DNA of 64,000 nt from Pseudomonadota bacterium (GCA_043820105.1 JBDREC010000049.1:1-64000); one strand, 5' to 3'. Positions 3,917 to 33,172 are shown, numbered from the stretch's first letter. Notes: generated from the letters alone by a model not told the origin. A program made the numbers and translations.

Positions 3917-4127
3917 GGCTTGCGCCAGGGATTATAGAGTGTTTTGTGCTATAATATTTAATACTTGTAGACCGGATTGCTTTTTGTGCGACAAAAAATG
4001 GACAAAAAAATGACAATATTGAAAAGAAAAAAGCAGACATAAAATAATTTATAAAATAAATTTTGTGCTTTTTGGATAATGTGATATAATTTTATTTATA
4101 GTAAAAAATATTAGAGTTGGAGAAAAA

Positions 4128-4400: not shown

Positions 4401-4610
4401 TATTCAATTCAATCCTTTCTTTAAAAGCTTTTCTATAGTCTAAATATTAATGATTTTTTAGTTGATATTGATATCTATAATATGCTAAAAATAATGCAGA
4501 CTGTAGTAATATTTTTAACATTTATTTGCTTTCTGTCCTAAAAAATGGGGGGTTATTTTTGTGATAGAGTTTTATCATTAAACAAATTGAATATTGTAAG
4601 GAGGATAATC

Positions 4611-6062: not shown

Positions 6063-6098
6063 GTTTTTTCTAATATTTAATAAAAGTTCAGGATCAGT

Positions 6099-7520: not shown

Positions 7521-7587
7521 TTTTTTAAAGAATTATTAATATTTTAAATTTATCATTGCATTTTTATTATTAAGGAAATCTTCATTT

Positions 7588-9030
7588 ATGAGTGATAATA
7601 ATCAATCTTTAGATGAACTAAATGATAATGATACTTTGTTAGTTTCTAATTTTATTATAAGACAGGATCGCTTTGAAGTATTAAATGAAAACTACTTTCT
7701 TAAAATAGGCAATGACACATATGAAGTAATCAATTATTCAAGTTTTGGCTTAGCTATACTACATTCTGAAGTTTTTAGCGATAGCTTTGATCAAATTGAA
7801 GCTGAATTTTTAATGAATAATGTGCTTATTAATAAACCTCTAATAAAGTTGATTAGACAAGAAAAGTATAATGATGAGCGATATCTAATTGCCTTTGAGC
7901 TTTTGTCAGAAGCATTGTCAATTGAAAGAATCAGTTTTATGGGTGATGTTGAAAAGTTGATTAAAAAGAACTGCTTTGAAGACAATAAATGGAGGGAGCT
8001 TCCTTTAGAATATAAAATCAAAGTCTTTGAACTTAAGGATTATTTATATAAGCTAAAAAATGAAATTGATTTAGTGGAAGCAGAAAATAATTCGTCCGAT
8101 CGTCAGGAGTGCTTGTCAGAGTTTAATAAGTCCTTTGTTTCAGTTTTTTCAAAGTTATTGTATAATCAGATTTCTTATTTTTGTTCTGGCATTTTTCCAA
8201 TTCTTAATAAACTTGATGAGGAAAAAAATAAAGAGGCCTTTAGCTTTTTTCATGAACACTTGAAATCTTTCATTAATAAATCAAAGTTAGCTTCTAAGAG
8301 TTTTAAAAAATCATCAAATCATGTTGGAGATCATGAATTATTTAGTTTGATCTACTCTAAAGAACTTTTTAGCCAATCATTATTTGATCAATGCATTGAA
8401 AGTTTTTTTATAAATCTACCGGAAGCAGAAGGCTTTAGAGAAAGGATAGAATATTTTAATAATTGGCTCATAGATGTTTTTAATAAAAATGAAAAGCAGG
8501 ATTTAAAAATATTATCTGTTGTCTCTGGATCAGCTATTGAGCTTAATAATTTATTAAGATCTAAGCAATTAAAATTAAAATACCCATTGGAGATTCATTG
8601 TATTGACCAGGATTTAAATGCCCTTAAACAAGCACAAGCAACTTTTAAAGAATTGCAGCTTGGAAAAGAAGCAATGATCAAATTTATATTTATACAAAAA
8701 AACATTTCCTCTATAATTAGCGCGAAATTTACAGATGATAATTATGATTACATTTATTCTGTAGGTCTTTTTGATTATCTTTCAGATCCTGTTGCTTCAT
8801 TAGCTGCTGTTAATCTGCTTAAGTATTTAAAAGAAGATGGAGAATTAGTAATTGGAAACTCTTCCTATGAAGCAAATAGAAAGCTTGAAATGATTTTTTT
8901 GCTCAAGTGGTATATTGTCCATAGGACTGAAAAGGATCTTTTAAAATTATTTAAGAAAATAACAAAAAAACTTCATATAGAACCATCAAAAGATAGTAAA
9001 AATAATTTTGTCTTTTTAAAAAGAAAGTGA
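7588..9030 (+). CDS. class I SAM-dependent methyltransferase, PhcB-like, copy 2 (divergent)
   Basis: Colinear paralog of 4611-6062 (RQDRFEVL, INYSSFG, IDQD, GLFDYLSDPVA); KPRGYAGD is replaced by KSSNHVGD. Confidence 0.78.
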   Translation: MSDNNQSLDELNDNDTLLVSNFIIRQDRFEVLNENYFLKIGNDTYEVINYSSFGLAILHSEVFSDSFDQIEAEFLMNNVLINKPLIKLIRQEKYNDERYLIAFELLSEALSIERISFMGDVEKLIKKNCFEDNKWRELPLEYKIKVFELKDYLYKLKNEIDLVEAENNSSDRQECLSEFNKSFVSVFSKLLYNQISYFCSGIFPILNKLDEEKNKEAFSFFHEHLKSFINKSKLASKSFKKSSNHVGDHELFSLIYSKELFSQSLFDQCIESFFINLPEAEGFRERIEYFNNWLIDVFNKNEKQDLKILSVVSGSAIELNNLLRSKQLKLKYPLEIHCIDQDLNALKQAQATFKELQLGKEAMIKFIFIQKNISSIISAKFTDDNYDYIYSVGLFDYLSDPVASLAAVNLLKYLKEDGELVIGNSSYEANRKLEMIFLLKWYIVHRTEKDLLKLFKKITKKLHIEPSKDSKNNFVFLKRK

Positions 9031-9045
9031 ATTAAAAAACCAAAT

Positions 9046-10470
9046 ATGAGTGCAGAAGTAAGTTCCATAGAAAAGCTAAGAGAAAAGGATCGTTTTGAAG
9101 AAATATTACGATTCATAAAGCTAAGTGTTTTTAAAATTGCACCTGCAATATTTTTAGCCTTTTGGTTTATTGATTGGCTTTTTGTTCCTCAAAAAAAGTG
9201 GGAATTGCTGGTTCTTAGATTTATGCTTATTCCATATTCTTTAATCTTTTCAGTTTTTTTAAATAAAGTTAAAACTATAGTAGAGGCTCAGATTCTTGGA
9301 ACTGCCTTGGTTTTATTCTATTCAATTAATTTAACACTGTGTATTTTTGTGTCTGGGGATGTTAGTTCCCCTTATTACGCCAGTCTTAATTTTATTACCA
9401 TAATTGCAATTGCCTTTGTTCCGTGGAGTAAAAAATTTCTAGTCTTTAATATTCTAATAATTTATGGTCCCTTTTATTTTGTTGCATTGGTTTTTTATAA
9501 TTATTTCTTTGGATACGTTCCCTTAATAATTAATTCATTTTTTATTGTTGGGACTGTTGTTATAAGCACCTTGATTCGATATTTTACTGAGAAGCTCAGG
9601 AAAAGTGAGGTTGTGGCCAAATATGTTTTAGAAAAAGAACTTAAATATAGAGAAAAAATAATTCAGCAAAAAACACAGGAAGCTTTAAAACTTGAAAATT
9701 TGACAAAACAATTTAGTCCACAAGTTGCTCATTACATTCTTAAGGAAGATAAACTTAAAATTGTTAACCAAGTTCACAGAGCCCAAATTTGTGCTATTTT
9801 TATAGACATTGTAGATTTCGCTGAAAGAATAGTTAGAGTTGATAAGGACGATGCAAATAAAGTTATTACAATGTTTTTAGATGAATCAATGGAAATTCTT
9901 TTAAAATATGATATTACTTTAGATAAATTTTTAGGCAGTGGAATTTTAGCATTTTCAAATGATCCCGTTGCTCATGATGATTATGTAGAAAGAGTTTTGC
10001 AGGCAGCAATTGAAATTAAAGAAAAAATAAGGCAAAATGAAGAAACTTATATTGAAAATTGGCTAAATGTTTTGCAGATACGAATTGGTATTTCTAGTGG
10101 CATTGCAGATGTTGGTTTCTATGGAACTGATGAAACATTCCAATCATACACTGCAATTGGTCAGGTTGTAAATTTAGCAGCAAGACTTTGCTATGCAGCA
10201 GAACCCGATCAAATTGTTATAAGTGAAGATATTAAAGAAAACTTACCTGTTAACAAATACGAATTTGAAAGAATTGGAGAAAAACCTCTAAAAGGTTTTG
10301 AAGGAAAATCCATATCCATCTATGGTCTTATTGGATACAAAGAAGAAACTTTTATTGATACTAATGTTAGAGAATGCCCAAATGGACATGGAATTTTACA
10401 TCTTGATTCAAATGAAAAGGGCATCTATGTTTTTAAGTGTCGAACCTGCAACTATCAGCAATCTCTTTGA
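9046..10470 (+). CDS. membrane-bound class III nucleotidyl cyclase, copy 2, with C-terminal Zn-ribbon
   Basis: Paralog of 6099-7520; FIDIVDF, DKFLGSG, YTAIGQVVNLAARL; CPNGHG...CRTC. Confidence 0.88.
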   Translation: MSAEVSSIEKLREKDRFEEILRFIKLSVFKIAPAIFLAFWFIDWLFVPQKKWELLVLRFMLIPYSLIFSVFLNKVKTIVEAQILGTALVLFYSINLTLCIFVSGDVSSPYYASLNFITIIAIAFVPWSKKFLVFNILIIYGPFYFVALVFYNYFFGYVPLIINSFFIVGTVVISTLIRYFTEKLRKSEVVAKYVLEKELKYREKIIQQKTQEALKLENLTKQFSPQVAHYILKEDKLKIVNQVHRAQICAIFIDIVDFAERIVRVDKDDANKVITMFLDESMEILLKYDITLDKFLGSGILAFSNDPVAHDDYVERVLQAAIEIKEKIRQNEETYIENWLNVLQIRIGISSGIADVGFYGTDETFQSYTAIGQVVNLAARLCYAAEPDQIVISEDIKENLPVNKYEFERIGEKPLKGFEGKSISIYGLIGYKEETFIDTNVRECPNGHGILHLDSNEKGIYVFKCRTCNYQQSL

Positions 10471-12322: not shown

Positions 12323-14938
12323 TTAAAAACTTATTAGATAGGAAACTGTTTCAGCATCAAATACTTTGCAAATATTTTCTTCCATTGGGTTAAATATTTT
12401 ATCGTAAGTTTCGATTGTGCCATCAAATCTAATATCAGTAGCAACTTCATATCTTGCTTGAAATAGATCTTCATTGTTGCAAAGGGTATTGTATATATCT
12501 GTGCCTGAAGCATATACAAATTGATTTAGTTCAGGCATCCAGAGACGTGGCCTATCATTTGCTATAAGGTTTCCAAAGAGAATACATTCTATCCTCAATT
12601 CTTCTCTTAATTTATTCTTTTCATCTTCATCGTAATAACCATGCTGGGTGCTGGGTACTACAAATACAGCAGATAAGATTTCTGCCCATGCACTAGCATA
12701 ATTGGCGGGTGAAATTAGTAAGTTTGTTTTCCAACTAACCAATTCAATATAGTTTTCAAACAAAGATTTATCTAGTGAAAGATCTGGAAAAATGTGTCCC
12801 CAGTAACGGCTTATGGATTTCCAATAATCAACTTTTCCATAAATGTTCACAAGTGTTTGTACCATAGAAGAAACAAGGGGTTTTAGGATTAGGTTTTGAA
12901 GAGGAGCTTGCAATTTGCCAAGAATATCAAGAGTTGCAGCTGGACTGTAGTTAAGTTCTCTTATTTCAGAATAATAATCATGTTTAATTAAATAGGTTAA
13001 AATTGCTATCTTCTGATCTTTAAACACAGTATCAATATCTTCAATTGAAAGTGAATGTTTGTTTTCAAGGAAATCAAGAGTGGATAGGAAGGTTATTAAA
13101 CCTATATGGATTACAGAGAATTCCTTGTCTTTAAAAAGTTCTAAAAAGTTTAATAATAATGGTTCTATTGTAACATTAAAATAATCTTGTATTATTTGAG
13201 AACTTTCTTGAACAGGTTCATAAAAAACATCATTTATATCTTCCCATGTAATTTCTACTGGCATATGAACATATAATCTTTCTGTTTGAGAAATAAAGTC
13301 ATCTTTATTAGAGCTATCCATATATATTTCAAAAAGAAGGTCAAAAAAGTTTCTTGCATTAAGTTCTGTTTGAATTGAGTTTGGAACCTCTATTGTTTGG
13401 CTACAATCTTCCTGGCCTGTATCTTTATCTTCAACACACCGCATTTCCATATCAGCTGGGTTGGAAACCATTGGATTAGATTCATATTCAATTAAGAGAA
13501 AAATTGCATCATTATCAATTTTAGCTGTGATTTTATCACTAAACTTTTGAGTTCTAATTTGTCGTTCAAAGTTCGCTACCTTATTTTCATTAAAGCTTAG
13601 AATTGTATTAACAAGGTTTAATGCATGCTGAATTAATGAATATTCATAACTATAATTTTCCAGAGCAGGAAATTTGAAGTTTTTTAAATTTTCGTATAAT
13701 TCATTGTAATTTTCAAAATAACTCTTAGCTTCAATAAAGTCTAGTTCTTCTTCTCTTAATAAAAATCCGTTTAAGCTGTTTTGTGATTGGGTTTCAATTC
13801 TTTGAGAAATAAGAGCAACATTTTGCAAAGTTTTTTCCATTAAAGTCCAATATTCAGTCATGTGCTCTTTTATTTCATTCTTGTCATAAATATAATCTGC
13901 CATTCTATAAATAGCGTTATCTTTTAAAAGCTGTTCCTCTTTTCGTAAAGAGCAGTGAATTTGTTCAAAATTCCAGTAAATACATTCAAATGATTTGAAG
14001 GCTATGATTTCCTCTATTTCAGAAATCGCATTATTAGTTATTAAAAAATCTATATTACTAATTAAGTTTGTTACAGCCGTTGAAATTACTTGGGCTATAC
14101 TTGCTACTGCACCAACCTTTCCTGGGATTGTTGACAGAAGCATGGAAGATTGAGAGACAAGATTTCCTATAGATTTTGCTATTGATGTTTGTTTTAAACA
14201 GACTTTAGGTGTTGAATTTACTTTTGTTGATACTACAGATAAATATAGAATGAGTTGAGATAATAGATGGCTTTTTGATTTTCTGGAGTTTTGCGCTTCT
14301 TCTATATCTAAAATTTTGCTAAAATATTCATCTTCAGTGGTTTTTGATAGACTTAATCTTTCGATATCGGAAAAATTTTTATCAACGTAAGTTATGATTG
14401 AACTATTAAAGAAATCAACTAAGTTAGCTATTTCAGATAAATTAGTTCCCTCAGTTTTTAGTTGGGCTATCATTTTCAAAAATTCTGTTTCATAAGTGTT
14501 AATTTCTGATAAACGACTTTCGAAATAAGGGTTACCTCTGCTGACCTCTTCATGTATATTGTTTCCCGGGCTTTCCATTTCAATGATACTATCAATAGTA
14601 GTAATGATCTTATTTTCTTCTTCTGTATTAAAGTTTTTATCAACTTTTTGCCCACAGTTTTCATAATCATTAACTAAGCTTTCTACTGATGCCTTTAGCT
14701 GTTCAGCTAGCTTTACGAAATTTTTCTCAAGTGCAAAAGGACAGACTTCTTTGGATGACATTGTAAAATTTTGATGATTAAGTTCACTAAAGGCCGAATC
14801 TTTGGCTGCAGCTAAAACTGTTCTCTTTGTGTGAATAAGATGTGTAAATGAAGGAATCTCGATAGCTTCTTCAGTTAATGCAAAGCTTGTGGTGAAAAAG
14901 AAGCTTACAAGTAAAAAAATAAATTTAAATTTAGTCAT
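12323..14938 (-). CDS. large secreted helical hypothetical protein
   Basis: Long ORF; GGAGG RBS before ATG 14938; signal peptide ending SFA. Confidence 0.75.
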   Translation of the reverse strand: MTKFKFIFLLVSFFFTTSFALTEEAIEIPSFTHLIHTKRTVLAAAKDSAFSELNHQNFTMSSKEVCPFALEKNFVKLAEQLKASVESLVNDYENCGQKVDKNFNTEEENKIITTIDSIIEMESPGNNIHEEVSRGNPYFESRLSEINTYETEFLKMIAQLKTEGTNLSEIANLVDFFNSSIITYVDKNFSDIERLSLSKTTEDEYFSKILDIEEAQNSRKSKSHLLSQLILYLSVVSTKVNSTPKVCLKQTSIAKSIGNLVSQSSMLLSTIPGKVGAVASIAQVISTAVTNLISNIDFLITNNAISEIEEIIAFKSFECIYWNFEQIHCSLRKEEQLLKDNAIYRMADYIYDKNEIKEHMTEYWTLMEKTLQNVALISQRIETQSQNSLNGFLLREEELDFIEAKSYFENYNELYENLKNFKFPALENYSYEYSLIQHALNLVNTILSFNENKVANFERQIRTQKFSDKITAKIDNDAIFLLIEYESNPMVSNPADMEMRCVEDKDTGQEDCSQTIEVPNSIQTELNARNFFDLLFEIYMDSSNKDDFISQTERLYVHMPVEITWEDINDVFYEPVQESSQIIQDYFNVTIEPLLLNFLELFKDKEFSVIHIGLITFLSTLDFLENKHSLSIEDIDTVFKDQKIAILTYLIKHDYYSEIRELNYSPAATLDILGKLQAPLQNLILKPLVSSMVQTLVNIYGKVDYWKSISRYWGHIFPDLSLDKSLFENYIELVSWKTNLLISPANYASAWAEILSAVFVVPSTQHGYYDEDEKNKLREELRIECILFGNLIANDRPRLWMPELNQFVYASGTDIYNTLCNNEDLFQARYEVATDIRFDGTIETYDKIFNPMEENICKVFDAETVSYLISF

Positions 14939-15189
14939 AAATCCTCCCAAAAGTTAAATTCCCCAAACTAACTCTAAAAACACAAATGTATACAAATGTG
15001 TTAAACCAATAACGAAATTAGTATGTCTCACTTTTTTAAAATCCGTAAGAATTAATGACATTCAAAACTGCGCTAAAATCCTATTTAAGCATGTGCTTGC
15101 TGTTTAGTATCTCCCTAAATTTGGACTTAACCGGCAGCTTAGAAAATATTGACGTGTGTATAAGATTAAGAAAATCTACCATTCTCCCC

Positions 15190-15226
15190 AAAAAAAAAGC
15201 CCTGTATTGCTTATACAAAACCGGGC
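15190..15226 (-). terminator. intrinsic terminator closing the rSAM-peptidase-MFS operon
   Basis: Minus strand GCCC-GGTTT-TGTAT-AAGCA-ATACA-GGGC followed by a T9 tract, about 80 nt after the MFS stop. Confidence 0.6.
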
Positions 15227-15306
15227 AACACTCATATAACACAGATCTTTTGCTATTGCAAGTAAAAAATCATAAGATCATGTAATGAAAACGCAAATAA
15301 GAATGG

Positions 15307-16587
15307 CTATAGCTCAAGAGCTATGTTTAAGGAGCTTTGCGCTAGTGTTGCTGTTTTATGCTTTGTGTGGAAGTAGGTAATAAAGAGCAATGATATAAGA
15401 ACAATTGGATAGTGACATAAAAAGACTGTTGTTGAAATAGGAAGAGCTTTCATGATTATTGGAACAATAATAAAACCAATTCCAAATCCTGTTCTTAATA
15501 CAAGGCTTGTTAAAGCAAACAGCTTGCCTCTAACTGCATCTTCGGATTTTTGAATATAACTGGTATAAAAGGTTTGGTATATACCATCTCCAAAACCTGC
15601 AATTAAAGCGGCTATAATAATTATTGGAATAAAGTTTGTTTGAAAAATTAATATCATGCCTGCTGACATAATTGCAGTAAAGCATAGATATAGGTTTTCT
15701 GCTTTTAGGCTTTTTAAGAATTTAGCCTTATTTAAAAACATAATACCTATAATATTACCTAGTCCCCAAAACATTAAAATTAAGCCATAAAAAAACATAG
15801 GTTTTTGAGGATCAAGATCTTTTGAAAATACTGGGAAACCAATGTTGTGCGATGCAGATGCAATGGCATCAAGAAATAGTATTGAAAGACAAATTATAAT
15901 TATATTAAAATTGTTTAAATTCGGAAGTTTTGAATAGTCATTTTTTAATTTATTAAATAGTGAGCAAGTCTTCTGGTTTTCCAGGACTTGACTACTTTTG
16001 ATTTGTGGTCTGGTGCTGAGTTTAATAAAAAAAAGTATAATTCCACTTATAAAATATGTAATTGAATCAAGAAAGAATATTGGATAATAATTCTTAAATA
16101 AATAATAAGCAAATACAGCTGCTAAGCCACTAAGGGCAAATGTTAAGTTCATGCCTCCCATTAATAAAGAGTTAGCCTTCATAGTATCTTTTTGATTTAA
16201 TATTGATGGAATGGATGCTCTCAAATTAATCTCAAATAAATTTGAAAAAACACCTATAAAAATCATCAAAAATAAAACATAGTATTTTATAACACTCTCA
16301 GGTACTATAAGTAAAAATGCTACTGCTACAGCCAAAACAAGATCTGAAGTTATCATTAGTTTTTTTCTATCAACTTTGTCTGATATATATCCTGAATAGG
16401 GCGCAGCTATAATTCCTGAAATTACTCTTGTTCCCATGGCGTATGCGATCCATAAGGGATCTTTTGTAAGTTCCAAAAGGAAAATATTAATCGCCATCAT
16501 ATTGAGAAATGAACCAAAGGTAGATCCAAGTCTAGAAATTAGTAGGATATAAAAATTTAGTGGCAGTTTATTATCTTTAGCTGTCAT
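15307..16587 (-). CDS. MFS transporter (efflux-type)
   Basis: About 12 TM helices, motif A GYISDKVDRKKLM. Confidence 0.9.
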   Translation of the reverse strand: MTAKDNKLPLNFYILLISRLGSTFGSFLNMMAINIFLLELTKDPLWIAYAMGTRVISGIIAAPYSGYISDKVDRKKLMITSDLVLAVAVAFLLIVPESVIKYYVLFLMIFIGVFSNLFEINLRASIPSILNQKDTMKANSLLMGGMNLTFALSGLAAVFAYYLFKNYYPIFFLDSITYFISGIILFFIKLSTRPQIKSSQVLENQKTCSLFNKLKNDYSKLPNLNNFNIIIICLSILFLDAIASASHNIGFPVFSKDLDPQKPMFFYGLILMFWGLGNIIGIMFLNKAKFLKSLKAENLYLCFTAIMSAGMILIFQTNFIPIIIIAALIAGFGDGIYQTFYTSYIQKSEDAVRGKLFALTSLVLRTGFGIGFIIVPIIMKALPISTTVFLCHYPIVLISLLFITYFHTKHKTATLAQSSLNIALEL

Positions 16588-16608
16588 AGATTCTCCATAA
16601 AAAAATAT

Positions 16609-17775
16609 TCAGTTCGTCAAATGCAATATACTGTCTAATGAATGTTGATAATAAAGATATGGTAAGATATTTAAACCATGTTTTTTAATTAAATTTTCAA
16701 CGTAATAGCTGCCAATAGGATAACTTGGTGTATAAAATTTATCATCTTCTGTAAAGTAGTCAGTTCTTTGCTTTATCAAAGCATCAGAAAATAACATATC
16801 GTTTTTTAATATGTCAAAATATTTTCTGGAAATTTCTTTTTCTTCAATGTTTTTACTGTACCACATATTATAAAATAATTTATGTAAGAATTTTTCAATT
16901 TTTTGTGTTATTAAAACTCTTGATCCAAGCAGGTCTCCAAATATTAAATCTGAATTGACAGCTAAGCCTTCATTAATCATATTTTCTGGAGAATAAAAGG
17001 TATCTATAGAGCCTACTAAATCAATTTGGCTATTATCAATTTGATATTGTTTTATTAAATAGTATAAATGGTGTCCAGGGATAACCTCATGACAAATAAA
17101 AGCCTTAATAAATTCATCTGATAGATTGGACTTTATACAAATGCCAAGTGTTCCCTGATAGTTTCCGTCATAGTGGTAATAACAAGTTGGATCTTCTGGC
17201 CCACTTTCTATGATTTTAATTTTTGAATTAGATAAAATCTTTTCAAGGTCTAATTTGAAAAGAGCTGAATATTTCTGACTTGTTATTTCATAATATTTAC
17301 TTATTACTTTAGAAACATAGTTGCCTAAGTCATTTTTGTTTTTGAATAAAACTATTCGGTTTTCATTTTTAAATTCTTCTAAATTTTTATACCCTAAGTT
17401 ATATAGGTGAGAATTTAATTTATTTAATTCTTGTTCAATATTAAATTTAGGAATTAATTTAATTCCATGTAATTTTTCGACCGTGTCTTTAAAACTCGTG
17501 TTTTTGTAGTCATTAACAAAATAATCCGCTTGAGTTAGAATAGAGGTTAGGAGATCTTTAAAGTATGTTTCTCGGTGCTTTAAGTTAACAACAGTTGTTG
17601 ATTGATTGATTTCATATAGAATAGAGGATAGATTCCTGTAAGCATTTTTAAATGATATTTTGCTGGCATTATGTTCGATGTTTTTTGGGCCTATGTAGCT
17701 ATGAATAAATTCATAGTCTTCAAAAGAGCTTGAAAGTGCCAGAATGTTTTTAGTAATATCTTTGTAAATATCCAT
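16609..17775 (-). CDS. DUF885-like putative zinc metallopeptidase
   Basis: CHEVIPGHH motif followed by NEGLA and a C-terminal SYPIG; no signal peptide. Confidence 0.65.
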   Translation of the reverse strand: MDIYKDITKNILALSSSFEDYEFIHSYIGPKNIEHNASKISFKNAYRNLSSILYEINQSTTVVNLKHRETYFKDLLTSILTQADYFVNDYKNTSFKDTVEKLHGIKLIPKFNIEQELNKLNSHLYNLGYKNLEEFKNENRIVLFKNKNDLGNYVSKVISKYYEITSQKYSALFKLDLEKILSNSKIKIIESGPEDPTCYYHYDGNYQGTLGICIKSNLSDEFIKAFICHEVIPGHHLYYLIKQYQIDNSQIDLVGSIDTFYSPENMINEGLAVNSDLIFGDLLGSRVLITQKIEKFLHKLFYNMWYSKNIEEKEISRKYFDILKNDMLFSDALIKQRTDYFTEDDKFYTPSYPIGSYYVENLIKKHGLNILPYLYYQHSLDSILHLTN

Positions 17776-17791
17776 ATGTCTCTTCCTTTGT

Positions 17792-18856
17792 CTAAAGTGT
17801 AGATTCTACAATGTGCTTGTAGCAATATTCATTTTTATATATTGATTTATGCAAAGAATAGGCCATGGATAGGCATCCGGCTTTACATTCTTCGTGTGAG
17901 CTACAGTTTTGACAGTTGCCTTCCATTTGTTTTGGATCATAATTTCTTGTATATGCAAAGCAATTATCATCATACCAAATATCTTTTAATGATCTATTTC
18001 TAACATTTCCAGCAGAGAACTTATCATCTTGCAGTGAAAGACAACCCTTAACATTTCCATTTGACTCAATTCCTAATACATATTTTCCAGCACTACAGCC
18101 ATCCCAGGTAGCGCCATCTAAGAGCTTGTCAATTTTATCATGGCAATAACCCATCGAGTCTGCTATTGTTATCTTAATTTTATCTCCATACTCTTCTTTC
18201 CATTTTAATATATCATTTGTTAATTCTACTAATTGATTTTTTTCAACAATTAGACTCTCAGCGTTTTTGCCCGCTCTACCAAAGGAGTTAACGATTTGTA
18301 CCTGCCAGATATCAACACCTTTATCCATGAGAATCTTTAATATATCCGCTCTTTGTGCAAAGTTTAATTTATTAAAGGAGGTGACGATACCAACTCTGTA
18401 ATTATTTTCTTGGCACATATCTATAACATTCATGACATTATTATACGCACCTTTATACTGTCTAATATAATCATGAGTATTTTCATTTCCATCAAGGCTG
18501 ATTGCAATATGTGTTGATTTTTTGCTTTTTAAGAATCTGATGTCATCTTCAGTGATTTGAGCTCCATTGCTAATTATGCTGATTTCAGAATAATCATCAT
18601 TTTCTGATTTAATATAATTTACTAATTCTCTCCAATGAGGATACATGAAGGGTTCTCCCCCTGAAAGAGTAAAGTATTTGGCTTTAAGGGATTTTAATTC
18701 ATCTATTACTTTTTTCCATTCATTTAAATTTAAGCTATTTGCACGATTTTGTCCATTAGCATAAGATCCACAATGGATACATCTCATATTACAGGCAAGA
18801 GTTACCTCTAGGGCAACAGCATATGGAAAGAATTTATCATCTACATATAGAGGCAT
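17792..18856 (-). CDS. radical SAM/SPASM peptide maturase
   Basis: CNMRCIHC, SGGEP, ISLDG; SPASM domain CSAG...GNVKGC...CQNC.....CKAGC...YC; AAGGAG RBS. Confidence 0.92.
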   Translation of the reverse strand: MPLYVDDKFFPYAVALEVTLACNMRCIHCGSYANGQNRANSLNLNEWKKVIDELKSLKAKYFTLSGGEPFMYPHWRELVNYIKSENDDYSEISIISNGAQITEDDIRFLKSKKSTHIAISLDGNENTHDYIRQYKGAYNNVMNVIDMCQENNYRVGIVTSFNKLNFAQRADILKILMDKGVDIWQVQIVNSFGRAGKNAESLIVEKNQLVELTNDILKWKEEYGDKIKITIADSMGYCHDKIDKLLDGATWDGCSAGKYVLGIESNGNVKGCLSLQDDKFSAGNVRNRSLKDIWYDDNCFAYTRNYDPKQMEGNCQNCSSHEECKAGCLSMAYSLHKSIYKNEYCYKHIVESTL

Positions 18857-18893
18857 GTTAATCTCCTTTGAAGTTTAAATCAAATTTAGCAAG

Positions 18894-18926
18894 AGGCAAA
18901 GCCGCTTTTAAAAAGCAGCTTTGCCT
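18894..18926 (-). promoter_or_regulatory. stem-loop between precursor P1 and the rSAM gene
   Basis: AGGCAAAGCTGCTTTT/AAAAGCGGCTTTGCCT with one G-U on the minus strand; no following U-tract. Confidence 0.65.
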
Positions 18927-18937
18927 TTTGAAAAAAC

Positions 18938-19009
18938 CTAGAAATCAGCAAGAATGACATAAGTTGGTCTTAGTGCCTTTTTCTTACTTTTCTTATTTGA
19001 TTTTTTCAT
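18938..19009 (-). CDS. putative RiPP precursor P1, MKKSNKKSKKKALRPTYVILADF (23 aa; not in ORF track)
   Basis: Translated by hand; GGAGGGAG RBS; shares the motif with P2 and P3. Confidence 0.85.
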   Translation of the reverse strand: MKKSNKKSKKKALRPTYVILADF

Positions 19010-19038
19010 GTCTCCCTCCAAAATTTCGTTTGGGAAAT

Positions 19039-19075
19039 AAAAAAAGGTGCTTCTTTAATAAATAAAGAAACACCT
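19039..19075 (-). terminator. intrinsic terminator/attenuator after precursor P2
   Basis: AGGTGTTTCTTTA-TTTAT-TAAAGAAGCACCT followed by a T-tract on the minus strand. Confidence 0.7.
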
Positions 19076-19082
19076 AAAAAGC

Positions 19083-19163
19083 TTAATCTGTTAACATCAG
19101 GTAAAAAGGTCTTAAAGCTTTCTTGACTGCTTTTTTCTTGGCCTTTTTTGTCGCTTTTTTCAT
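19083..19163 (-). CDS. putative RiPP precursor P2, MKKATKKAKKKAVKKALRPFYLMLTD (26 aa; not in ORF track)
   Basis: Translated by hand; AAGGAG RBS; shared motif. Confidence 0.85.
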   Translation of the reverse strand: MKKATKKAKKKAVKKALRPFYLMLTD

Positions 19164-19269
19164 AATGGACTCCTTTTAATAAAGGGTTACTAAAAACTTG
19201 CTTTTATACGGAAGAACCTTAGCTTGTTTTGACCAAAGTGTTTTCCAAAAGCCTTGAGAATGAGCATTT

Positions 19270-19285
19270 TGCAAGTAATATGCCA
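19270..19285 (-). promoter_or_regulatory. sigma-54 promoter upstream of P2-P1-rSAM
   Basis: TGGCATATTACTTGCA, near-consensus -24/-12 with exact GG-N10-GC spacing. Confidence 0.75.
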
Positions 19286-19415
19286 TAGCAAAAGAGACCA
19301 TTGGTTTTCGTATAAGCGTTTAAATTTAAAGGCAAAACTCTATTGTATTCGTGTTTGGGTTATATTTGATTCGAAAGATAAGGTGTCGTTATGATACTTT
19401 AGGAGCAGAAATTTG

Positions 19416-19499
19416 CTACCAGTCAAGTAAGATATATTCAGGTCTTATTGCTCTTTTTTTTAATGATTTGTTTTTCTTGGATTGCTTATTGTTTTCCAT
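19416..19499 (-). CDS. putative RiPP precursor P3, MENNKQSKKNKSLKKRAIRPEYILLDW (27 aa; not in ORF track)
   Basis: Translated by hand; GGAGGG RBS; shared motif. Confidence 0.83.
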   Translation of the reverse strand: MENNKQSKKNKSLKKRAIRPEYILLDW

Positions 19500-19580
19500 T
19501 TGATTCCCTCCGAGTTTATTGATTATAAAAATACGAAAGCTAAATTACAAAGAAAAAATTAAATTGCAAGAATAAATATT

Positions 19581-22500
19581 TTATTTGTTAACTTTGATAT
19601 CATACTTTATTATTTTTGAACTCAGTGTTTTTTTATCAATTGCCAGTATCTTAGCCGCTTGAGATTTATTCCCATCTGTTTCTTTTAATACATTTTCAAT
19701 TGCTAATTTTTCAACATCACATAATCTTTTTCCCTTAAATACTATTTGATTACTAATGTTATATTTAGTGCTATCAATGAGAGAAGTATCTATGACATTT
19801 GAATTAGAAAGATAGATTAGTTTTTTAATTTCATTTTCAAGTTCTCGAATATTTCCAGGCCAGCTGTAGCTTTTAAAATTATCAATTAATTTTTTATCAA
19901 AAACTTTCGCTTGTTTTAGACTGTGTTTATTTAGAAAATGTTCTATTAATAAAGGAATGTCTTCTGGACGCTCTCTTAATGAAGGGAGCTTTATATGGAT
20001 TACATTCAGTCTAAAATATAAATCTTGCCTAAAGGTTTCTGTTTTTGTCATTTCTAAAAGATCTCTATGTGTAGCTGAAATTATTCTTACATCCACGTTA
20101 TATATTTTATTTCCACCAACACGGCGTATCTTTTTTTCCTGAATCGCTCTTAAAAGCTTTTTTTGCATTGAAATAGGCATATCGCCGACTTCATCTAAAA
20201 ACAAAGACCCCTCATGAGCAAGCTCAAAGAGGCCACGTTTGTCTATATTCGCATCTGTATACGCTCCTTTAACATAACCAAAAAGTTCAGTTTCAAGAAT
20301 TGATTCTGTAAGAGCGGAACAGTTTTCAGCAAAAAAAGGTTTCTCAGTTCTGTTTCCATTATAGTGAATTGCTCTTGCTATTAATTCTTTTCCTGTACCA
20401 CTTTCTCCTGTAATTAAGACTGAAATGTCTGAATCTTTTACTTTATCAATAGTTTCAAATATTTTAAACATGCTTGTGCTTTGAGTAATTATATTTCTAT
20501 AATCATAGTCCTGGATTTCATTTCGTTTACTTAGTTCCAGGGCTTCTTTGGTTTTTTCATAGTTTTCTTCTGTGACTATAAGCCTCTCTTTTACAGCGCT
20601 TGCTTCAGTATTAATTTTAATGTTTTCCTGAGCTAGTTGTTTTAAGTGTTTTGTGTTTGAAATTGCGATTGAAACTTGGCTGGCAAAAGTTAACATAAGT
20701 TCTTTGTCAATATTATCAAAAGCCGCTATTTTTGTAGGGTCATCTAAATAAATTAAACCAGCTACTTTATTATTTTCAACAATCGGTAGAGATAAAACGC
20801 TTTTTAGATTTGAAGCCTGTATGCTGTGAGCTTCTGTAAAATTTTCAATTGCATTTGAAATTTTCAATACGTTTTCTTTTAAAAAGGTATTTTGGATGAT
20901 TGTGTTACTAATTTGATCAGTGTATTGTTTAATATCTTCTTTGTGAATGTTTCTTGCAGCTAAGACTTGAAAGCTTGTAAGGGTAGATAGATCTATTGTT
21001 TCAGTTGGTACAGCTTCTTTGAGTATTATAAATCCACGTTTGGCATCTGAAAATAGGATTGCGTTGTCTAGAATAAGATTTAATAAACGATTTAAATCTT
21101 TTTCCTGTGAGAGGCTTAAATTAATTTCAAAAATCTTGTGTAATTTATTTATGTCAGAAAAGCCATCACGATCAAGTTTTATCATTGATAGAAGTTCTTT
21201 AGCAGAAGAAACTTTCGGTAAGAGATTAAAGTTTGATAAATTTGTAACTAGAATATGTTCTTCTATGCTTGCTATTGTGTTTTGCAAGAGCTTGCTATAT
21301 TCTTCAAGTTTTAAAACATTTTTAGTGAAAAAATACAGTCTTGTAAAAGCTTCGTAATATGATATTTTCATTAATGGATAAAGTTCATCAGCATTTATTG
21401 ATTCAATTTGATCTAAAAAATCTTTAGCTTTTAATGGACTTTCTTTATCAAGCTCTATATTTGCTTTTATTATATTTGTTTCAATGTTGATAATTACATT
21501 CTTGTCTAAAAGCTCAGTTGCTTTTTTTAATAAAGAATATGTTTTATCAATGTTTCCTTGCTTCTTTTCTAATAAGGCTAGGTTTGTGTAGATATCCGCC
21601 ATTCCACTTTTATTGTTTGTTTCCTTAAAAAGTTCAAGGGCTTTATCATAATTTTCCTTACAGCGTTCTATATCATTTTTATTGAATGCGAGGTCAGCCA
21701 GCAAGGAATAGTTGGATGCTAATAATAGTTTGTTATTTCGTTTCTTTGATAAGGCCAATGATTCATTTGCATAATAGCTTGAGTTATCAATATCTCCCAT
21801 CATTGAATAAATTAATGCTATGTTGAAAGTTGCAGTTTCTGTTTCCCTTGGTTTGTCAAGGTTTTCAAGAATATCAAAAGATTCTTTATAAGATTCTAAT
21901 GCTTCTTGTAAAAGCCCCATTCTTAATTGGTTTGAACCAATATTCAAACATTGCTGCGCCTTTTTCCTTATTTGATGAAATTCTTCAGAAATATTGAGCG
22001 CTTCTTTATGCCAATTTATTGCATCTTCTAAGTGGCCAAGCATAGTTGAACTTAAGCCCATGTTGTTTAAAGATGCAATGATGCCACTTTGTTCCTTCAG
22101 TAAACATGCAAAGTCATATGAAAGTTTGAACTCTTCGATACTTTTCTCGAAATTTCCTGAATAATAATTTAGCAGTCCAGAAAGGTTATATAATTTGATT
22201 TTATGAAAATCTTCTAGGATTTCTTTTGCTTTTAATTCATTTAGAATTAATTTGCAGGCTTCGAATTGAGATTGTCCCATTAAAGCTGAAACCTTGAGCA
22301 ATAGAAGCTCTGTTTTTTTGTTATCATTTTGATTTTCACAGGCTTTTAGAATTGCCATATCATAAATTGAAATTCCTTCTGAATATATACCTTTATTTGT
22401 TTTAATTTGTCCCTTGAGTTTCAAAAGATCAAGCTCTTGGTTTGGGTTTAGCTCAAATAAACTCAAACCATTTGCATGTGTTTCTGCGGTATTATAATCA

Positions 22501-25466
22501 CCTGTAAATAATGTAATTTTGACCAATTCAAAAAGAGTGTTGATTTTTAGAGCTTCCTTTTCTTTTGTGTCAATTGCTCCAAGGGAGTTTATGATGATAT
22601 TGTAATAATTAGTTGCTCCTAACAAAAAACCTTTTGAAAAATTGCTCTGGGCCAGTTTGTTATATATTCGCAATGCCTCCATGTTATCTTTTGCAAGTAG
22701 TAGGTGATTCGCTATCTTTTCTTCTTGCTTTTCAGTGCTATAATCAAAGGATTCTAACTCTTGTGCTATTGCTTTATGAATAAGGCTAGCTTCTTTAGAT
22801 GGAATTAAATCACTAATGATTTGCTTTGAAAACTCATCGCTAATGGAGAATAGTTTGTTTGCTTTTGTTAAAATAATTTCATTATCAGATTTTATTTCAT
22901 ATGAAGTGCTTAGAAAGTTTTTTGAATATAAATAATCCAGTTTTAATAAAAGCTCTGGTTTTGATAAAGGATAATTAATTTTAATTAAGATTGTTGAGAT
23001 TGACTCAATTGTTAAGGGTAAATCAAATAGGGTGCTTATAAAAAGAATTTTTTGACCTTCCTTGTCTAATGACTTTACTCTTAAGCTTATAGCTTCTGCA
23101 ATGTCCTTTGGGTAACCTGTTGGAATTCGATGCAATGCAATTGATTCATTTTTAATTAAAATTTGAGCTTTTGAAATTAAATATGGAATTAGTGTTGTAA
23201 TATAAGCAGGGTTTCCGCCTGATGCTTTGAAGACATAATCAAGAAAATCATTTGATATACTTTTATTGAAAATATCCTCAAGCAATGAATTAGTTTCTTT
23301 TCTTGAGAGCCTTTCAAGTTCAAATGATTCCACTTTAATGTGTCTGGAAGCTTTAGATAAAAAAGTATCAAGCAAAATATGCTTTTTAGCTAGATCACTG
23401 TTCAGTGAAAAGAAAAACAAAATATTTGATTTATGTTCTTTAATTGAATCAAATAAGAACCTCAAAAAAATTATTGCAATTTTATTAATGTTTTCACATT
23501 TATCAAAATAAATTAGCGTATCACTATTTCCAATCCTTGATATAAATGTATCAGAGAGCTTTTTAATGAAAGTTGTTGTGTCAGTTAGTTTTACATCGCC
23601 TGATTGCTCATCATTTTCTATTTCTAAGGTTATTGAACATGAACAAAAATCTATAATATCTTGTAAGGAATAGAATTTGATAAAGCTAAAGCTTTTAGAA
23701 TTAATCTCACTTAAATTTGCTTGGTTTATAAATTCATTAATTATTCTGGTTTTGCCAGAACCAGTTTCTCCAACAATAGTTATTATTACCTTGTCAGATT
23801 TGGTTTTTATTTTAGAAAAAACAATATCAAAGTTATTTTGAATTTTTCTTAAAAGCTCATGATTGCCAGTTAAAGATGCCTGTTTTATTGTTAACTTTCC
23901 ACTTAATTCTTGTTTGCTTAAAAGGGAATTCTCAAAAAAATTATTAAGTTCCTTAAGTATTTCACCTTCATTCTGATATCTATCTTTTGAATTATAGGCC
24001 GTCATTTTTGAAATAATGTTACAAAATTCTAGAGGCAAATCCTTTTTTACATAATTTAATTTTATATATTCATTATTTTTTATATCATTTAAATATTCAT
24101 CAAAGGTGCTTGTTGAAAATGGAAAGCTTTTTGTTATTATATGGTAAATGCTCATACCAAAGGAGTAAAGGTCTGATGATGCACTTTCCTTTTTTTGAAG
24201 CAAAATTTCTGGATCAATAAAAAAATTAGTTCCCTTTATTTTAGCTTCTGAGTCCTTGACTAAACCAAAATCTATCAACCTCAGCTCAATAAAACCTTCT
24301 TTGCTTTTTGAAAAGAGAATGTTTGAAGGATTAATGTCGTGATGCTTTATGTTTTTATCTTTCATCACTACAAGTAAAGCTAGGATGTTTGACATAATAG
24401 CATAAATATCCTTTGGTTTTAGTTTGCCAGCATAATGACTTAAGTTTGGAGTTTCAAAATATTCCATTGTAAAGTAATAGCTTTTATTTTCACCATAGAA
24501 AGCAAAATCATAAACCTGAGGAAGCAAGGGATGTTTAAGTTCTTTAAGTAAAATAAATTCATCTTTGAAGGCTTTAATATTTTCTCTAGTATTATTTTCT
24601 TCTTTTAATAGTTTTAGTGCAATAAAAGTTTTCTTGCTTAAATCAAAAGCTAAATAAATATTGCTACTCAGACCTTTTCCTATAAGCTTTTCGATTCTAT
24701 ATCTTTGTCCAATATATTTGATAAGTTTATAATCAACATTGATTTCTTTTTGAAGTTGCAGGTCCTGCGATTTCAGTTTTAGTATAGAATTACATTCAGC
24801 TGGCATGTATTCTTTAAATTTATTAAAAATATATTTAAAATGAGGTCTTGTTAAACCCTTTTTTGAAGAGGTTTCAAATAAAAATCCCCTTTTTGTGCTT
24901 TGCAAAGCCTTTATTCCACGTTTCAGGCTGTTTTCATATTTATTTTCATTGAAAAAGAAATATTCAAATTCTTTTTTAGGAGGGATTTTTATGCCAATTT
25001 TATCATCTGTAATTAATATATCTTGTTTCTTTAGTTTAGAGATCTTATCTGTGTTAAGTCCACAAAGAACATATAATAAAAAAATTGTCTTTCTATTGTC
25101 ATCAACATGCTCAATTTTATCCAAAAATCCTTCAATTTTATCTTTTGGTAGGTAAACAAGAGCTTGCTTTTGCTTGTTTTTAAGACTTTTCCCCAAATCT
25201 TTTAATTCAAAAGCTTGCGACAAGTATTTGAAAAATAATTTTAATGAGGATATATAAAGGTTATATGTATGAGCAGAATACCCTTTTTTTTCAACATCAT
25301 CTAAAAACAATTTAAGATTTTCAAGAGTCAATTCACCAGGATCCTTGAAGCCTGAAAAAAACTTTTCAAGGTCATTGAGTTTCTTTTTATATAGCTCAAT
25401 AGTACCCTTATTGCATTTCTTCCTTTTTTCAAGGCTTAAAATAAACTCAGCAATTACTTTTTTCAT
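19581..25466 (-). CDS. multidomain sigma-54 activator: degenerate XerC/D-like domain, Ser/Thr kinase, AAA NTPase, TPR, GAF, bEBP AAA+, Fis HTH
   Basis: Integrase core-binding pattern (GYSAHTYNLYISSLKLFFKYL); kinase IGKG, ALK, HHDINPSN, DFG; GETGSGKT; TPRs; GAF; GESGTGKE, GAYTDA, LFLDEV, FRQDLYFRL, WPGNIRELEN; GNKSQAAKIL. ATG 25466 preferred over TTG 25541. Confidence 0.88.
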   Translation of the reverse strand: MKKVIAEFILSLEKRKKCNKGTIELYKKKLNDLEKFFSGFKDPGELTLENLKLFLDDVEKKGYSAHTYNLYISSLKLFFKYLSQAFELKDLGKSLKNKQKQALVYLPKDKIEGFLDKIEHVDDNRKTIFLLYVLCGLNTDKISKLKKQDILITDDKIGIKIPPKKEFEYFFFNENKYENSLKRGIKALQSTKRGFLFETSSKKGLTRPHFKYIFNKFKEYMPAECNSILKLKSQDLQLQKEINVDYKLIKYIGQRYRIEKLIGKGLSSNIYLAFDLSKKTFIALKLLKEENNTRENIKAFKDEFILLKELKHPLLPQVYDFAFYGENKSYYFTMEYFETPNLSHYAGKLKPKDIYAIMSNILALLVVMKDKNIKHHDINPSNILFSKSKEGFIELRLIDFGLVKDSEAKIKGTNFFIDPEILLQKKESASSDLYSFGMSIYHIITKSFPFSTSTFDEYLNDIKNNEYIKLNYVKKDLPLEFCNIISKMTAYNSKDRYQNEGEILKELNNFFENSLLSKQELSGKLTIKQASLTGNHELLRKIQNNFDIVFSKIKTKSDKVIITIVGETGSGKTRIINEFINQANLSEINSKSFSFIKFYSLQDIIDFCSCSITLEIENDEQSGDVKLTDTTTFIKKLSDTFISRIGNSDTLIYFDKCENINKIAIIFLRFLFDSIKEHKSNILFFFSLNSDLAKKHILLDTFLSKASRHIKVESFELERLSRKETNSLLEDIFNKSISNDFLDYVFKASGGNPAYITTLIPYLISKAQILIKNESIALHRIPTGYPKDIAEAISLRVKSLDKEGQKILFISTLFDLPLTIESISTILIKINYPLSKPELLLKLDYLYSKNFLSTSYEIKSDNEIILTKANKLFSISDEFSKQIISDLIPSKEASLIHKAIAQELESFDYSTEKQEEKIANHLLLAKDNMEALRIYNKLAQSNFSKGFLLGATNYYNIIINSLGAIDTKEKEALKINTLFELVKITLFTGDYNTAETHANGLSLFELNPNQELDLLKLKGQIKTNKGIYSEGISIYDMAILKACENQNDNKKTELLLLKVSALMGQSQFEACKLILNELKAKEILEDFHKIKLYNLSGLLNYYSGNFEKSIEEFKLSYDFACLLKEQSGIIASLNNMGLSSTMLGHLEDAINWHKEALNISEEFHQIRKKAQQCLNIGSNQLRMGLLQEALESYKESFDILENLDKPRETETATFNIALIYSMMGDIDNSSYYANESLALSKKRNNKLLLASNYSLLADLAFNKNDIERCKENYDKALELFKETNNKSGMADIYTNLALLEKKQGNIDKTYSLLKKATELLDKNVIINIETNIIKANIELDKESPLKAKDFLDQIESINADELYPLMKISYYEAFTRLYFFTKNVLKLEEYSKLLQNTIASIEEHILVTNLSNFNLLPKVSSAKELLSMIKLDRDGFSDINKLHKIFEINLSLSQEKDLNRLLNLILDNAILFSDAKRGFIILKEAVPTETIDLSTLTSFQVLAARNIHKEDIKQYTDQISNTIIQNTFLKENVLKISNAIENFTEAHSIQASNLKSVLSLPIVENNKVAGLIYLDDPTKIAAFDNIDKELMLTFASQVSIAISNTKHLKQLAQENIKINTEASAVKERLIVTEENYEKTKEALELSKRNEIQDYDYRNIITQSTSMFKIFETIDKVKDSDISVLITGESGTGKELIARAIHYNGNRTEKPFFAENCSALTESILETELFGYVKGAYTDANIDKRGLFELAHEGSLFLDEVGDMPISMQKKLLRAIQEKKIRRVGGNKIYNVDVRIISATHRDLLEMTKTETFRQDLYFRLNVIHIKLPSLRERPEDIPLLIEHFLNKHSLKQAKVFDKKLIDNFKSYSWPGNIRELENEIKKLIYLSNSNVIDTSLIDSTKYNISNQIVFKGKRLCDVEKLAIENVLKETDGNKSQAAKILAIDKKTLSSKIIKYDIKVNK

Positions 25467-25556
25467 ATATGGAACTTTTGGATAGTTTAACAAAATATAT
25501 CGTATATGATAGTAAAATAATTGATGAAAAGCAAGTGGCAACTTGTTTGGAATCCG

Positions 25557-25815: not shown

Positions 25816-25831
25816 AGCGAAGGGTGTGCCA
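25816..25831 (-). promoter_or_regulatory. putative sigma-54 promoter
   Basis: TGGCACACCCTTCGCT: perfect TGGCAC, GG-N10-GC spacing, -12 element TCGC. Confidence 0.55.
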
Positions 25832-29890: not shown

Positions 29891-29906
29891 TGCAAGCTTT
29901 ATGCCA
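29891..29906 (-). promoter_or_regulatory. putative sigma-54 promoter of tpx
   Basis: TGGCATAAAGCTTGCA, near consensus, 50 nt upstream of the start. Confidence 0.65.
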
Positions 29907-33156: not shown

Positions 33157-33172
33157 TGCAAGGATTGTGCCT
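33157..33172 (-). promoter_or_regulatory. putative sigma-54 promoter
   Basis: AGGCACAATCCTTGCA, GG-N10-GC, 43 nt upstream of the 33114 start. Confidence 0.6.

Follow-up and report, generated by a model that had tools for sequence, protein, structure and literature searches.

A candidate radical-SAM peptide-maturation cluster with three Lys-rich A[LI]RPxY peptides and a DUF885-like protein in a Pseudomonadota genome

PqqE and MftC modify the Tyr of the very short precursor peptides PqqA and MftA, each in a pathway with a dedicated peptidase, and a feature of the PqqA precursor is its conserved Glu-x3-Tyr. Among the peptides that are made by ribosomes and modified after translation (RiPPs), the epipeptides (YydF/YydG, EpeX/EpeE) also start from a short precursor, in which a radical S-adenosylmethionine (rSAM) enzyme epimerises aliphatic residues and which is cleaved by a metalloprotease, summarised in a review as a membrane M50 enzyme (PMC10885120). 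RrrB, of the 'RRR' subfamily of streptococcal radical-SAM RiPPs (RaS-RiPPs), is outlined as forming the Arg-Tyr carbon-carbon macrocycle of ryptide near the C-terminus of its precursor RrrA, a 41-mer found in the shp/rgg quorum-sensing context of streptococci (PMC9389541), and WprB is outlined as making Trp-C5 to Arg-C-gamma crosslinks at the WPR motifs of WprA (PMC11851443). Here we analysed a stretch of 64,000 nt from a Pseudomonadota bacterium (GCA_043820105.1 JBDREC010000049.1:1-64000; the whole stretch is called the window below), in which three small open reading frames (ORFs), P3, P2 and P1, are followed on the same strand by genes for an rSAM enzyme with a SPASM domain, an HExxPGHH protein and a transporter of the major facilitator superfamily (MFS). 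This order of candidate precursor, SPASM maturase, peptidase and exporter resembles the layout of known radical-SAM RiPP pathways, and we put the probability that the cluster is a new radical-SAM RiPP family at about 70%.

The three ORFs had been placed on the minus strand by the first-pass annotation of this DNA, and the ORF listing gave the same coordinates and translations (Table 1), with an alternative TTG start at 19021 for P1. Each ATG has the strong ribosome-binding site that had been claimed for it, a Shine-Dalgarno (SD) sequence of GGAGG or AAGGAG at a distance of 5-8 nt. All three peptides end in [KR]A[LI]RPxYxxL(x)D, and the single invariant Tyr, which had also been pointed out before, lies 5-6 residues from the C-terminus. 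Their alignment has nine invariant positions, which are three Lys in the basic part and A, R, P, Y, L and D in the C-terminal part. Lys makes up 12 of 26 residues in P2, 10 of 23 in P1 and 8 of 27 in P3, Cys occurs in none of them, and Glu is found only in P3, immediately before the Tyr, so that no Glu is conserved.

The peptides were then compared with the systems above. An invariant Arg and an invariant Tyr three residues apart near the C-terminus are shared with ryptide; this is a necessary feature only, the likeness concerns the peptide residues, and an Arg-Tyr crosslink in P1-P3 would be a guess. Unlike RrrA, they have 23-27 aa, are poly-Lys, come in three copies and are accompanied by a DUF885-like enzyme, an MFS pump and a sigma-54 activator. 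Their invariant R-P-x-Y recalls WprA as outlined in its description, where an aromatic residue and an Arg on either side of Pro are joined by an rSAM enzyme, but the residue order is reversed, the aromatic residue of WprA is Trp rather than Tyr, and WprA carries three motifs per peptide instead of one. We use RrrB and WprB as leads to the chemistry of P1-P3 and not as tests of it. PqqE and MftC are among the best-scoring curated families for the rSAM enzyme described here, and PqqE is also among its solved relatives. However, P1-P3 have neither the C-terminal Val-Tyr of the mycofactocin precursor nor the Glu-x3-Tyr of PQQ (pyrroloquinoline quinone), no gene for a PqqD/MftB-type chaperone was seen in this operon, and an exporter gene is present. 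Unlike sactipeptides and ranthipeptides, the cores have no Cys. No match of P1-P3 to the curated precursor families of Pfam and NCBIfam was obtained, and a literature search, mostly at the level of listings and abstracts, returned no description of the motif, of a Lys-rich rSAM precursor, of this gene combination or of DUF885 in a RiPP context.

The shared ending is nearly confined to this locus. In a six-frame translation of the 3.81-Mb assembly (32% GC, 7.6 million residues), A[LI]RP.Y occurred five times, three of them in P1-P3 within 560 nt, and when it was followed by D and a stop it occurred three times, all in P1-P3. In the 10-residue core, P2 and P1 have 7 identical residues, 6 of which are written with different codons, and their differences at codon positions 1, 2 and 3 number 4, 1 and 7. 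Because of these different codons and the 4/1/7 pattern, the likeness of P2 and P1 is at the protein level and not that of a DNA repeat, which points to selection on the peptide. This bears on the explanation that P1-P3 are unexpressed and that their motif is the remnant of a local intergenic duplication. In its favour, there is no RNA or protein evidence of expression, and a search of a protein collection with P1-P3 gave 41 candidates sharing words with them, among which there was no annotated homologous peptide and none at E <= 10; this empty search is uninformative because genes this short are seldom called. A remnant would hardly keep all three frames intact, replace 6 of 7 identical residues by synonymous codons or retain the full motif three times here and nowhere else in the genome. 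It would also have to acquire three strong SD sites, each of them a 2.1% event, as a strong SD 5-mer precedes 2868 of 136666 ATGs genome-wide. We regard this explanation as extremely improbable.

P1-P3 sit 82-640 nt upstream of the rSAM gene on the same strand, which places candidate precursors beside the enzyme. That a radical SAM/SPASM gene follows the small ORFs had been noted before, and it was confirmed by Pfam domains (PF04055, 81 bits; PF13186, 37.9 bits) and by invariant Cys. The CX3CX2C motif (C22-X3-C26-X2-C29) and the SPASM residues C254-X12-G267-X4-C272, C315-X2-C318-X5-C324-X3-C328 and C345 did not vary at all among 34 aligned members of the about 72 close homologs. The seven-Cys pattern of SPASM domains is CX9-15GX4C ... 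CX2CX5CX3C ... C, and the complete set is present in this protein. Since the radical-SAM core begins at residue 22, there is no room for an N-terminal RiPP recognition element (RRE) domain.

The enzyme stands outside the curated families. It scored below the cut-off in all 25 best NCBIfam families, and the nearest of these were peptide maturases, namely the GDL-motif maturase (TIGR03913, 181 bits vs a cut-off of 592), Nif11 maturase 3 (TIGR04103, 164 vs 725), MftC (TIGR03962, 142 vs 265), PqqE (TIGR02109, 113 vs 381), WgkB (NF050035, 109 vs 650), DynA (NF041298, 96 vs 450) and SkfB, all below cut-off. By profile search, the nearest solved relatives were SkfB, PqqE (E 8.5e-22), the radical SAM protein 5wgg, which we take to be CteB, and anSME. 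In a collection of 5.8 billion proteins the family comprised about 72 clusters at 43-62% identity, after which identity fell to about 40%, and the named close homologs came from metagenome-assembled genomes (MAGs) labelled Elusimicrobiota, Deltaproteobacteria, Oligoflexales or only 'bacterium'. The close homologs include the proteins MBU1916557.1, MBF0106063.1, MCX5797058.1, MBI2342649.1, MBF0443707.1 and MDR1123365.1. The window's genome has at least 12 rSAM/SPASM-like matches to the rSAM query.

We then modelled the rSAM protein (with its alignment, three [4Fe-4S] clusters and SAM) together with the 42-aa stop-to-stop frame that contains P3. The complex scored 0.92, 0.93 and 0.59 (median 0.92) vs 0.02 for the best control; 58 of 80 solved complexes and 2 of 110 mismatched pairs attain the mark used for this score, a calibration that is only rough for the rSAM-P3 case. 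At least 81% of the contacts were common to the runs, and the predicted local distance difference test score (pLDDT) of the partner was 46-60. The confident interface was limited to P3 residues 12-27, the last 16 residues. In the model, K15-I18 lie on rSAM residues 246-260 beside the invariant W251, R19 lies on I231-D233 and Q185, and I23 and L24 lie within the barrel on T63, A118 and Q185. The first-pass annotation had divided the peptides into a poly-Lys leader and a core of about 10 aa, and this division needs revision, as the modelled enzyme engages the whole last part including [KR]A[LI]RP, with the poly-Lys part outside the confident interface. I23 and L24 are the P3 residues modelled nearest the barrel interior, a likeness to the epipeptides and their epimerised aliphatic residues; YydG differs in being a weak match to the rSAM protein, over the N-terminal core only (E 1.9e-10).

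The interface was also compared between 71 of 72 close homologs and 43 of 46 outgroup members of 36-41% identity, the others (1 and 3) being left out because of their length. D233 and W251 were invariant in 71 of 71 close homologs and Q185 was kept in 70 of 71; positions 248 and 250 were Asp and Glu in 53 of 71. Positions 61, 246 and 259 were aromatic or aliphatic in the close family and mostly Arg in the outgroup. At the level of the model, this pattern agrees with a preference for a basic peptide throughout the family, and from it the substrates of the homologs are predicted to carry the Arg too.

The model is also relevant to the idea that P1-P3 are regulatory leader peptides, which would act by Lys-codon-sensing attenuation or by ribosome arrest on an rSAM operon with another substrate. 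P1-P3 are very rich in Lys, R-P-containing C-terminal motifs occur in known arrest peptides, and a terminator-like hairpin with a U-run follows P2 while a strong hairpin follows P1. But attenuation does not need three different peptides, each with its own strong SD, in which synonymous changes leave one C-terminal motif of 10 residues intact; an alternative anti-terminator pairing was not seen, and it is exactly the shared motif that docks on the modelled rSAM enzyme, far above the controls. We judge leader peptides to be improbable. The hairpin after P2 begins 8 nt past its stop, and the 11 matches with E <= 1 in an Rfam search of 18700-19700 fell far short of the gathering scores. The hairpin between P1 and the rSAM gene is possibly an attenuator or a transcript-stabilising element, judging from its predicted fold.

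The HExxPGHH protein had been proposed as the metallopeptidase of the system. The motif gene is present and the fold is that of a DUF885-type gluzincin; the peptidase role itself would follow from fold and motif. The protein had no Pfam match at E <= 1 and no NCBIfam family, and a profile search against PDB sequences gave a best E of 0.26. A word search found 18 homologs, and a profile search of 1.84 billion representatives found 155 at E <= 1e-3, of which 33 reached E <= 1e-30, and the length of nearly all members is about 400 aa. An AlphaFold (AF2) model from 18 of 19 sequences (one partial sequence left out) had a pLDDT of 92.1 and a predicted template modelling score (pTM) of 0.91. Three DUF885 structures ranked first in Foldseek, with Z scores of 26.2 (3iuk; root-mean-square deviation 4.2 A over 356 aligned residues), 20.0 (3u24) and 19.7 (3o0y), and the next tier at Z 11-12.5 consisted of M32 carboxypeptidases, M3 oligopeptidases and the tyrosine carboxypeptidase MATCAP. 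The fold of an alpha-ketoglutarate-dependent HExxH oxygenase (8s5f) was rejected (template modelling score 0.24, probability 0.66, vs Z 26 for DUF885).

Sequence comparison agreed with the fold. The Pfam DUF885 family (PF05960) matched the protein at 10.2 bits vs a gathering score of 32.4, in the motif region 17041-17106 only, and such sub-threshold matches were found in 5 of 10 distant family representatives. When the true DUF885 protein of the genome was aligned with the HExxPGHH protein, HEAFPGHHLQ...NEGWAVY fell on HEVIPGHHLYY...NEGLAVN, with HExxPGHH...NEGxA in common. From the fold, the motif alignment and the sub-threshold matches, the protein is a shortened and divergent DUF885-type gluzincin, which shares fold and motif with DUF885 and fold with M32 and M3 enzymes but differs from DUF885 in its length (388 vs about 550 aa), in forming a small family of its own and in its pairing with an rSAM gene. 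DUF885-like enzymes are not among the RiPP metalloprotease families M1, M16, M61, M103 and M50 named in passages of a RiPP protease review (PMC10885120). Two further genes of the genome touch on this family: a bona fide DUF885 protein of 545 aa (L193:1486-3123, G000 contig C90; 332 bits) and a 482-aa distant relative of the HExxPGHH protein with an HE..PGH motif (L182:589-2037, G000 contig C64; hhalign probability 95%).

The pairing of these two genes recurs elsewhere. Homologs of the rSAM enzyme and of the HExxPGHH protein with consecutive NCBI protein accessions were found in three differently labelled MAG lineages (five assemblies), and for 7 of 18 HExxPGHH homologs the longest contig had the same size as that of an rSAM homolog. 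As they are neighbours in three MAG lineages, the pair is a conserved unit with a patchy distribution.

Within sampled genomes the close family was confined to the window's own. The sample comprised 1,041 genomes (400 relatives, 401 of one other phylum, that of genome G061, and 238 of one class of that phylum, the last two sets probably overlapping), and it contained no close rSAM homolog outside the window's genome. In the phylum of G061, the rSAM profile at 1e-90 matched 0 of 401 genomes and the HExxPGHH profile matched 2 of 401, both weakly at 19 bits. In the class of G061, the rSAM profile at 1e-60 matched 4 of 238 genomes, and these do not belong to the close family because the best reached 279 bits vs 571 for the window's own gene. 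Among 401 relatives including the window's own genome, 3 were matched, and the other two (G882 and G682, 313-321 bits) carried other cluster types without such peptides. In G882 (L191, contig C9), two adjacent rSAM/SPASM genes (449 and 368 aa) are followed by an ATP-binding cassette transporter, which looks like a different peptide-maturation cluster. In 61 genomes of relatives, the best rSAM protein outside the window's genome was 33% identical, and viral contigs gave no match. Scans for peptide-like ORFs gave a similar picture. The tail [AGS][LIVM]RP.[YFW] after a K/R-rich stretch was found among 180 loci in the window's own only, with five other matches that were not K/R-rich; when the criteria were relaxed to small K/R-rich ORFs that have an SD and lie upstream of an rSAM gene, 20 loci gave ORFs, none of them like P1-P3; and tblastn with the HExxPGHH protein on 184 loci returned the window's own gene and one distant paralog only.

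The conservation of the peptides, the position of the SPASM enzyme outside the curated equivalogs, the peptidase fold, the recurrence of the gene pair and the docking of the tail all favour a RiPP cluster, and the first-pass proposal of such a system stands in part. Several points weigh against it. The host phylum is represented by four species-level genomes in the collection searched, and the HExxPGHH gene is in one of the four, the window's own, so that the cluster is patchy given three other genomes of the phylum without this gene. Contig collections (genome_contigs and metagenome_contigs) scanned with the generic rSAM patterns CNMxCxHCG and T[LF]SGGEPF gave 80 + 80 loci among the matches listed, with rSAM identities of only 25-38%, and none of these 160 has P1-P3-like peptides or an HExxPGHH gene. 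The pass of the complex model may stem from likeness to solved SPASM-peptide complexes, and its modelled partner was the 42-aa stop-to-stop frame, the fold of which is itself uncertain. A search of sequencing runs gave no RNA run containing the stretch, and one DNA run had 7% of its words, as short identical fragments without variants. The Lys-richness of P1-P3 is in part expected at 32% GC, and nothing fixes the chemistry, as P1-P3 lack Cys and correspond to none of the known families of precursors. In a literature listing, no demonstrated peptidase activity of DUF885 was seen.

If the cluster is a RiPP family, we propose that it is an operon for ribosomally made, enzyme-modified and exported peptides, which would work as follows. 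P3, P2 and P1 would be translated into precursors of 23-27 aa, and the RRE-less rSAM enzyme would bind the conserved C-terminal block directly, with [KR]A[LI]RP along a SPASM beta-strand and the invariant Arg against the invariant Asp233. The Y-x-x-L part would then reach the SAM barrel, where hydrogen abstraction would take place, and one modification would be installed that involves the invariant Tyr or its neighbours. The modification that we would guess first is a C-C cyclophane, between Arg and Tyr as in the product of RrrB or between Tyr and the aliphatic residue two places further on; alternatively, the enzyme would epimerise the aliphatic residues. The DUF885-like zinc enzyme would trim the peptide at the poly-Lys N-terminus or at the C-terminal tail, and the MFS pump would export the product. 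For its transcription the operon probably relies in part on sigma-54 and on the giant activator next to it, and the hairpins after P2 and P1 may keep precursor mRNA in excess. A bolder version would make the cluster a RiPP class of its own, new to science: a SPASM enzyme without an RRE recognises A[LI]RPxY directly as a C-terminal tag and forms a new Arg-Pro-x-Tyr or Tyr-aliphatic cyclophane, the precursors, which are poly-cationic, are the shortest known for rSAM RiPPs, a miniature DUF885-type processing peptidase gives the superfamily its first function, and the exported product signals back through the TPR/GAF sigma-54 activator. We consider this version as a whole doubtful.

The three genes downstream of P1-P3 lie in the same direction as had been described, with gaps of 16 and 21 nt between the rSAM, HExxPGHH and MFS genes. 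The transporter also matched TIGR00900 at 106 bits, below cut-off, and is EntS-like. A terminator had been claimed after the MFS gene; the U9 run and a hairpin are there, but the hairpin is weak and the consensus scan did not flag it. The other features of the region are collected in Table 1.

Table 1 Features of the candidate RiPP cluster and its surroundings in the window
Feature	Position	Strand	Remarks
P3, candidate precursor, 27 aa	19416-19499	minus	MENNKQSKKNKSLKKRAIRPEYILLDW, C-terminus RAIRPEYILLDW; SD GGAGG 7 nt 5' of ATG
P2, candidate precursor, 26 aa	19083-19163	minus	MKKATKKAKKKAVKKALRPFYLMLTD, C-terminus KALRPFYLMLTD; SD AAGGAG 5' of ATG
P1, candidate precursor, 23 aa	18938-19009	minus	MKKSNKKSKKKALRPTYVILADF, C-terminus KALRPTYVILADF; SD GGAGGGAG 5' of ATG
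Radical SAM/SPASM enzyme, 354 aa, candidate peptide maturase	17792-18856	minus	Pfam Radical_SAM, SPASM, Fer4_12
HExxPGHH protein, 388 aa, candidate processing peptidase	16609-17775	minus	Compact DUF885-like gluzincin fold
MFS transporter, 426 aa, candidate exporter	15307-16587	minus	MFS_1 102 bits, MFS_3 48.6 bits
Weak hairpin + U9 run after MFS gene, probable operon end	15190-15226	minus	-11.8 kcal/mol, z -0.2; unflagged by consensus scan
Strong hairpin without U-run, P1-rSAM interval	18894-18926	minus	-26.8 kcal/mol, z -4.7; 0/200 shuffles fold as well
Terminator-like hairpin + U-run after P2	19045-19075	minus	13-pair stem + T-run; -16.8 kcal/mol, z -6.6; 0/200 shuffles fold as well
Sigma-54-type promoter-like site	19270-19285	minus	TGGCATATTACTTGCA; in 250-nt P3-P2 spacer, ~105 nt before P2; one mismatch to consensus
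Sigma-70-like promoter upstream of P3	19522-19550	minus	TTGTAA-17-TATAAT; 10/12 consensus match, best class in scan of 14900-19700
Regulator, 1986 aa, directly upstream, co-directional	19581-25541	minus	Pfam: integrase-type SAM-like N-terminal domain, Ser/Thr kinase, STAND-type AAA ATPase, TPR, GAF, sigma-54 activator AAA+, HTH_8
Sigma-54-like sites	3912-3927, 19270-19285, 25816-25831, 29891-29906, 33157-33172	minus	<= 1 mismatch

Two kinds of promoter-like site were found near the small ORFs. The scan for sigma-70 sites gave 31 vs 26 expected and reports consensus match only. With the sigma-54 consensus TGGCAC-N5-TTGCW, 5 sites with at most one mismatch were found in the window vs 1.6 expected, all on the minus strand. 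Four of the five precede a minus-strand ORF or coincide with its start, and the remaining one (25816) is found 275 nt upstream of the regulator gene. The genome has a gene for RpoN, and these sequence matches suggest a sizeable sigma-54 regulon in this region. The 1986-aa regulator possibly controls the cluster, judging from its adjacency and the sigma-54-like site before P2; fusions of this size are unusual among enhancer-binding proteins.

The regulator is also of interest for another explanation, in which P1-P3 are secreted unmodified through the MFS transporter as pheromone-like or cationic antimicrobial peptides, with the rSAM and HExxPGHH proteins serving another role or with the peptidase alone processing them. 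The precursors of SHP-type pheromones have a similar size and layout, with a basic N-terminus and a hydrophobic C-terminus containing Asp, and here a regulator with TPR adjoins the cluster. However, the rSAM gene lies within 82 nt of P1 and its product is modelled on the conserved tail, a merely hydrophobic signal would hardly account for the invariance of Arg, Pro and Tyr, and no Rgg-type partner turned up, though no search was aimed at one. Taken together, secretion of unmodified peptides seems to us very improbable, and a radical-SAM RiPP cluster is preferred.

If that is right, the cluster would bring to radical-SAM peptide chemistry a further precursor family and, probably, a crosslink or stereochemical edit that is new, it would show substrate recognition by a SPASM enzyme without an RRE domain, and it would give the widespread DUF885-like fold a first biochemical role, in peptide processing. 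To our knowledge, no natural products are known from the host phylum, a point on which no search was made. The surprise is limited because this is one of very many uncharacterised rSAM-peptide clusters. With precursors of 23-27 aa and three enzyme and transport genes, the system is small enough to be rebuilt in E. coli.

Several other genes of the window were noted. Just downstream of the cluster, past the U-run, 12323-14950 (minus strand) encodes a protein of 875 aa that matched no Pfam family and has a hydrophobic, signal-like segment at its N-terminus. At 4545-10470 (plus strand), four genes of 473-505 aa lie in tandem as two alternating pairs of paralogs, the first and third being 36% and the second and fourth 50% identical; a class III adenylate/guanylate cyclase domain is present in the fourth. 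On the other side of the cluster, 26292-27899 (plus strand) encodes a 535-aa protein with thrombospondin type 3 repeats.

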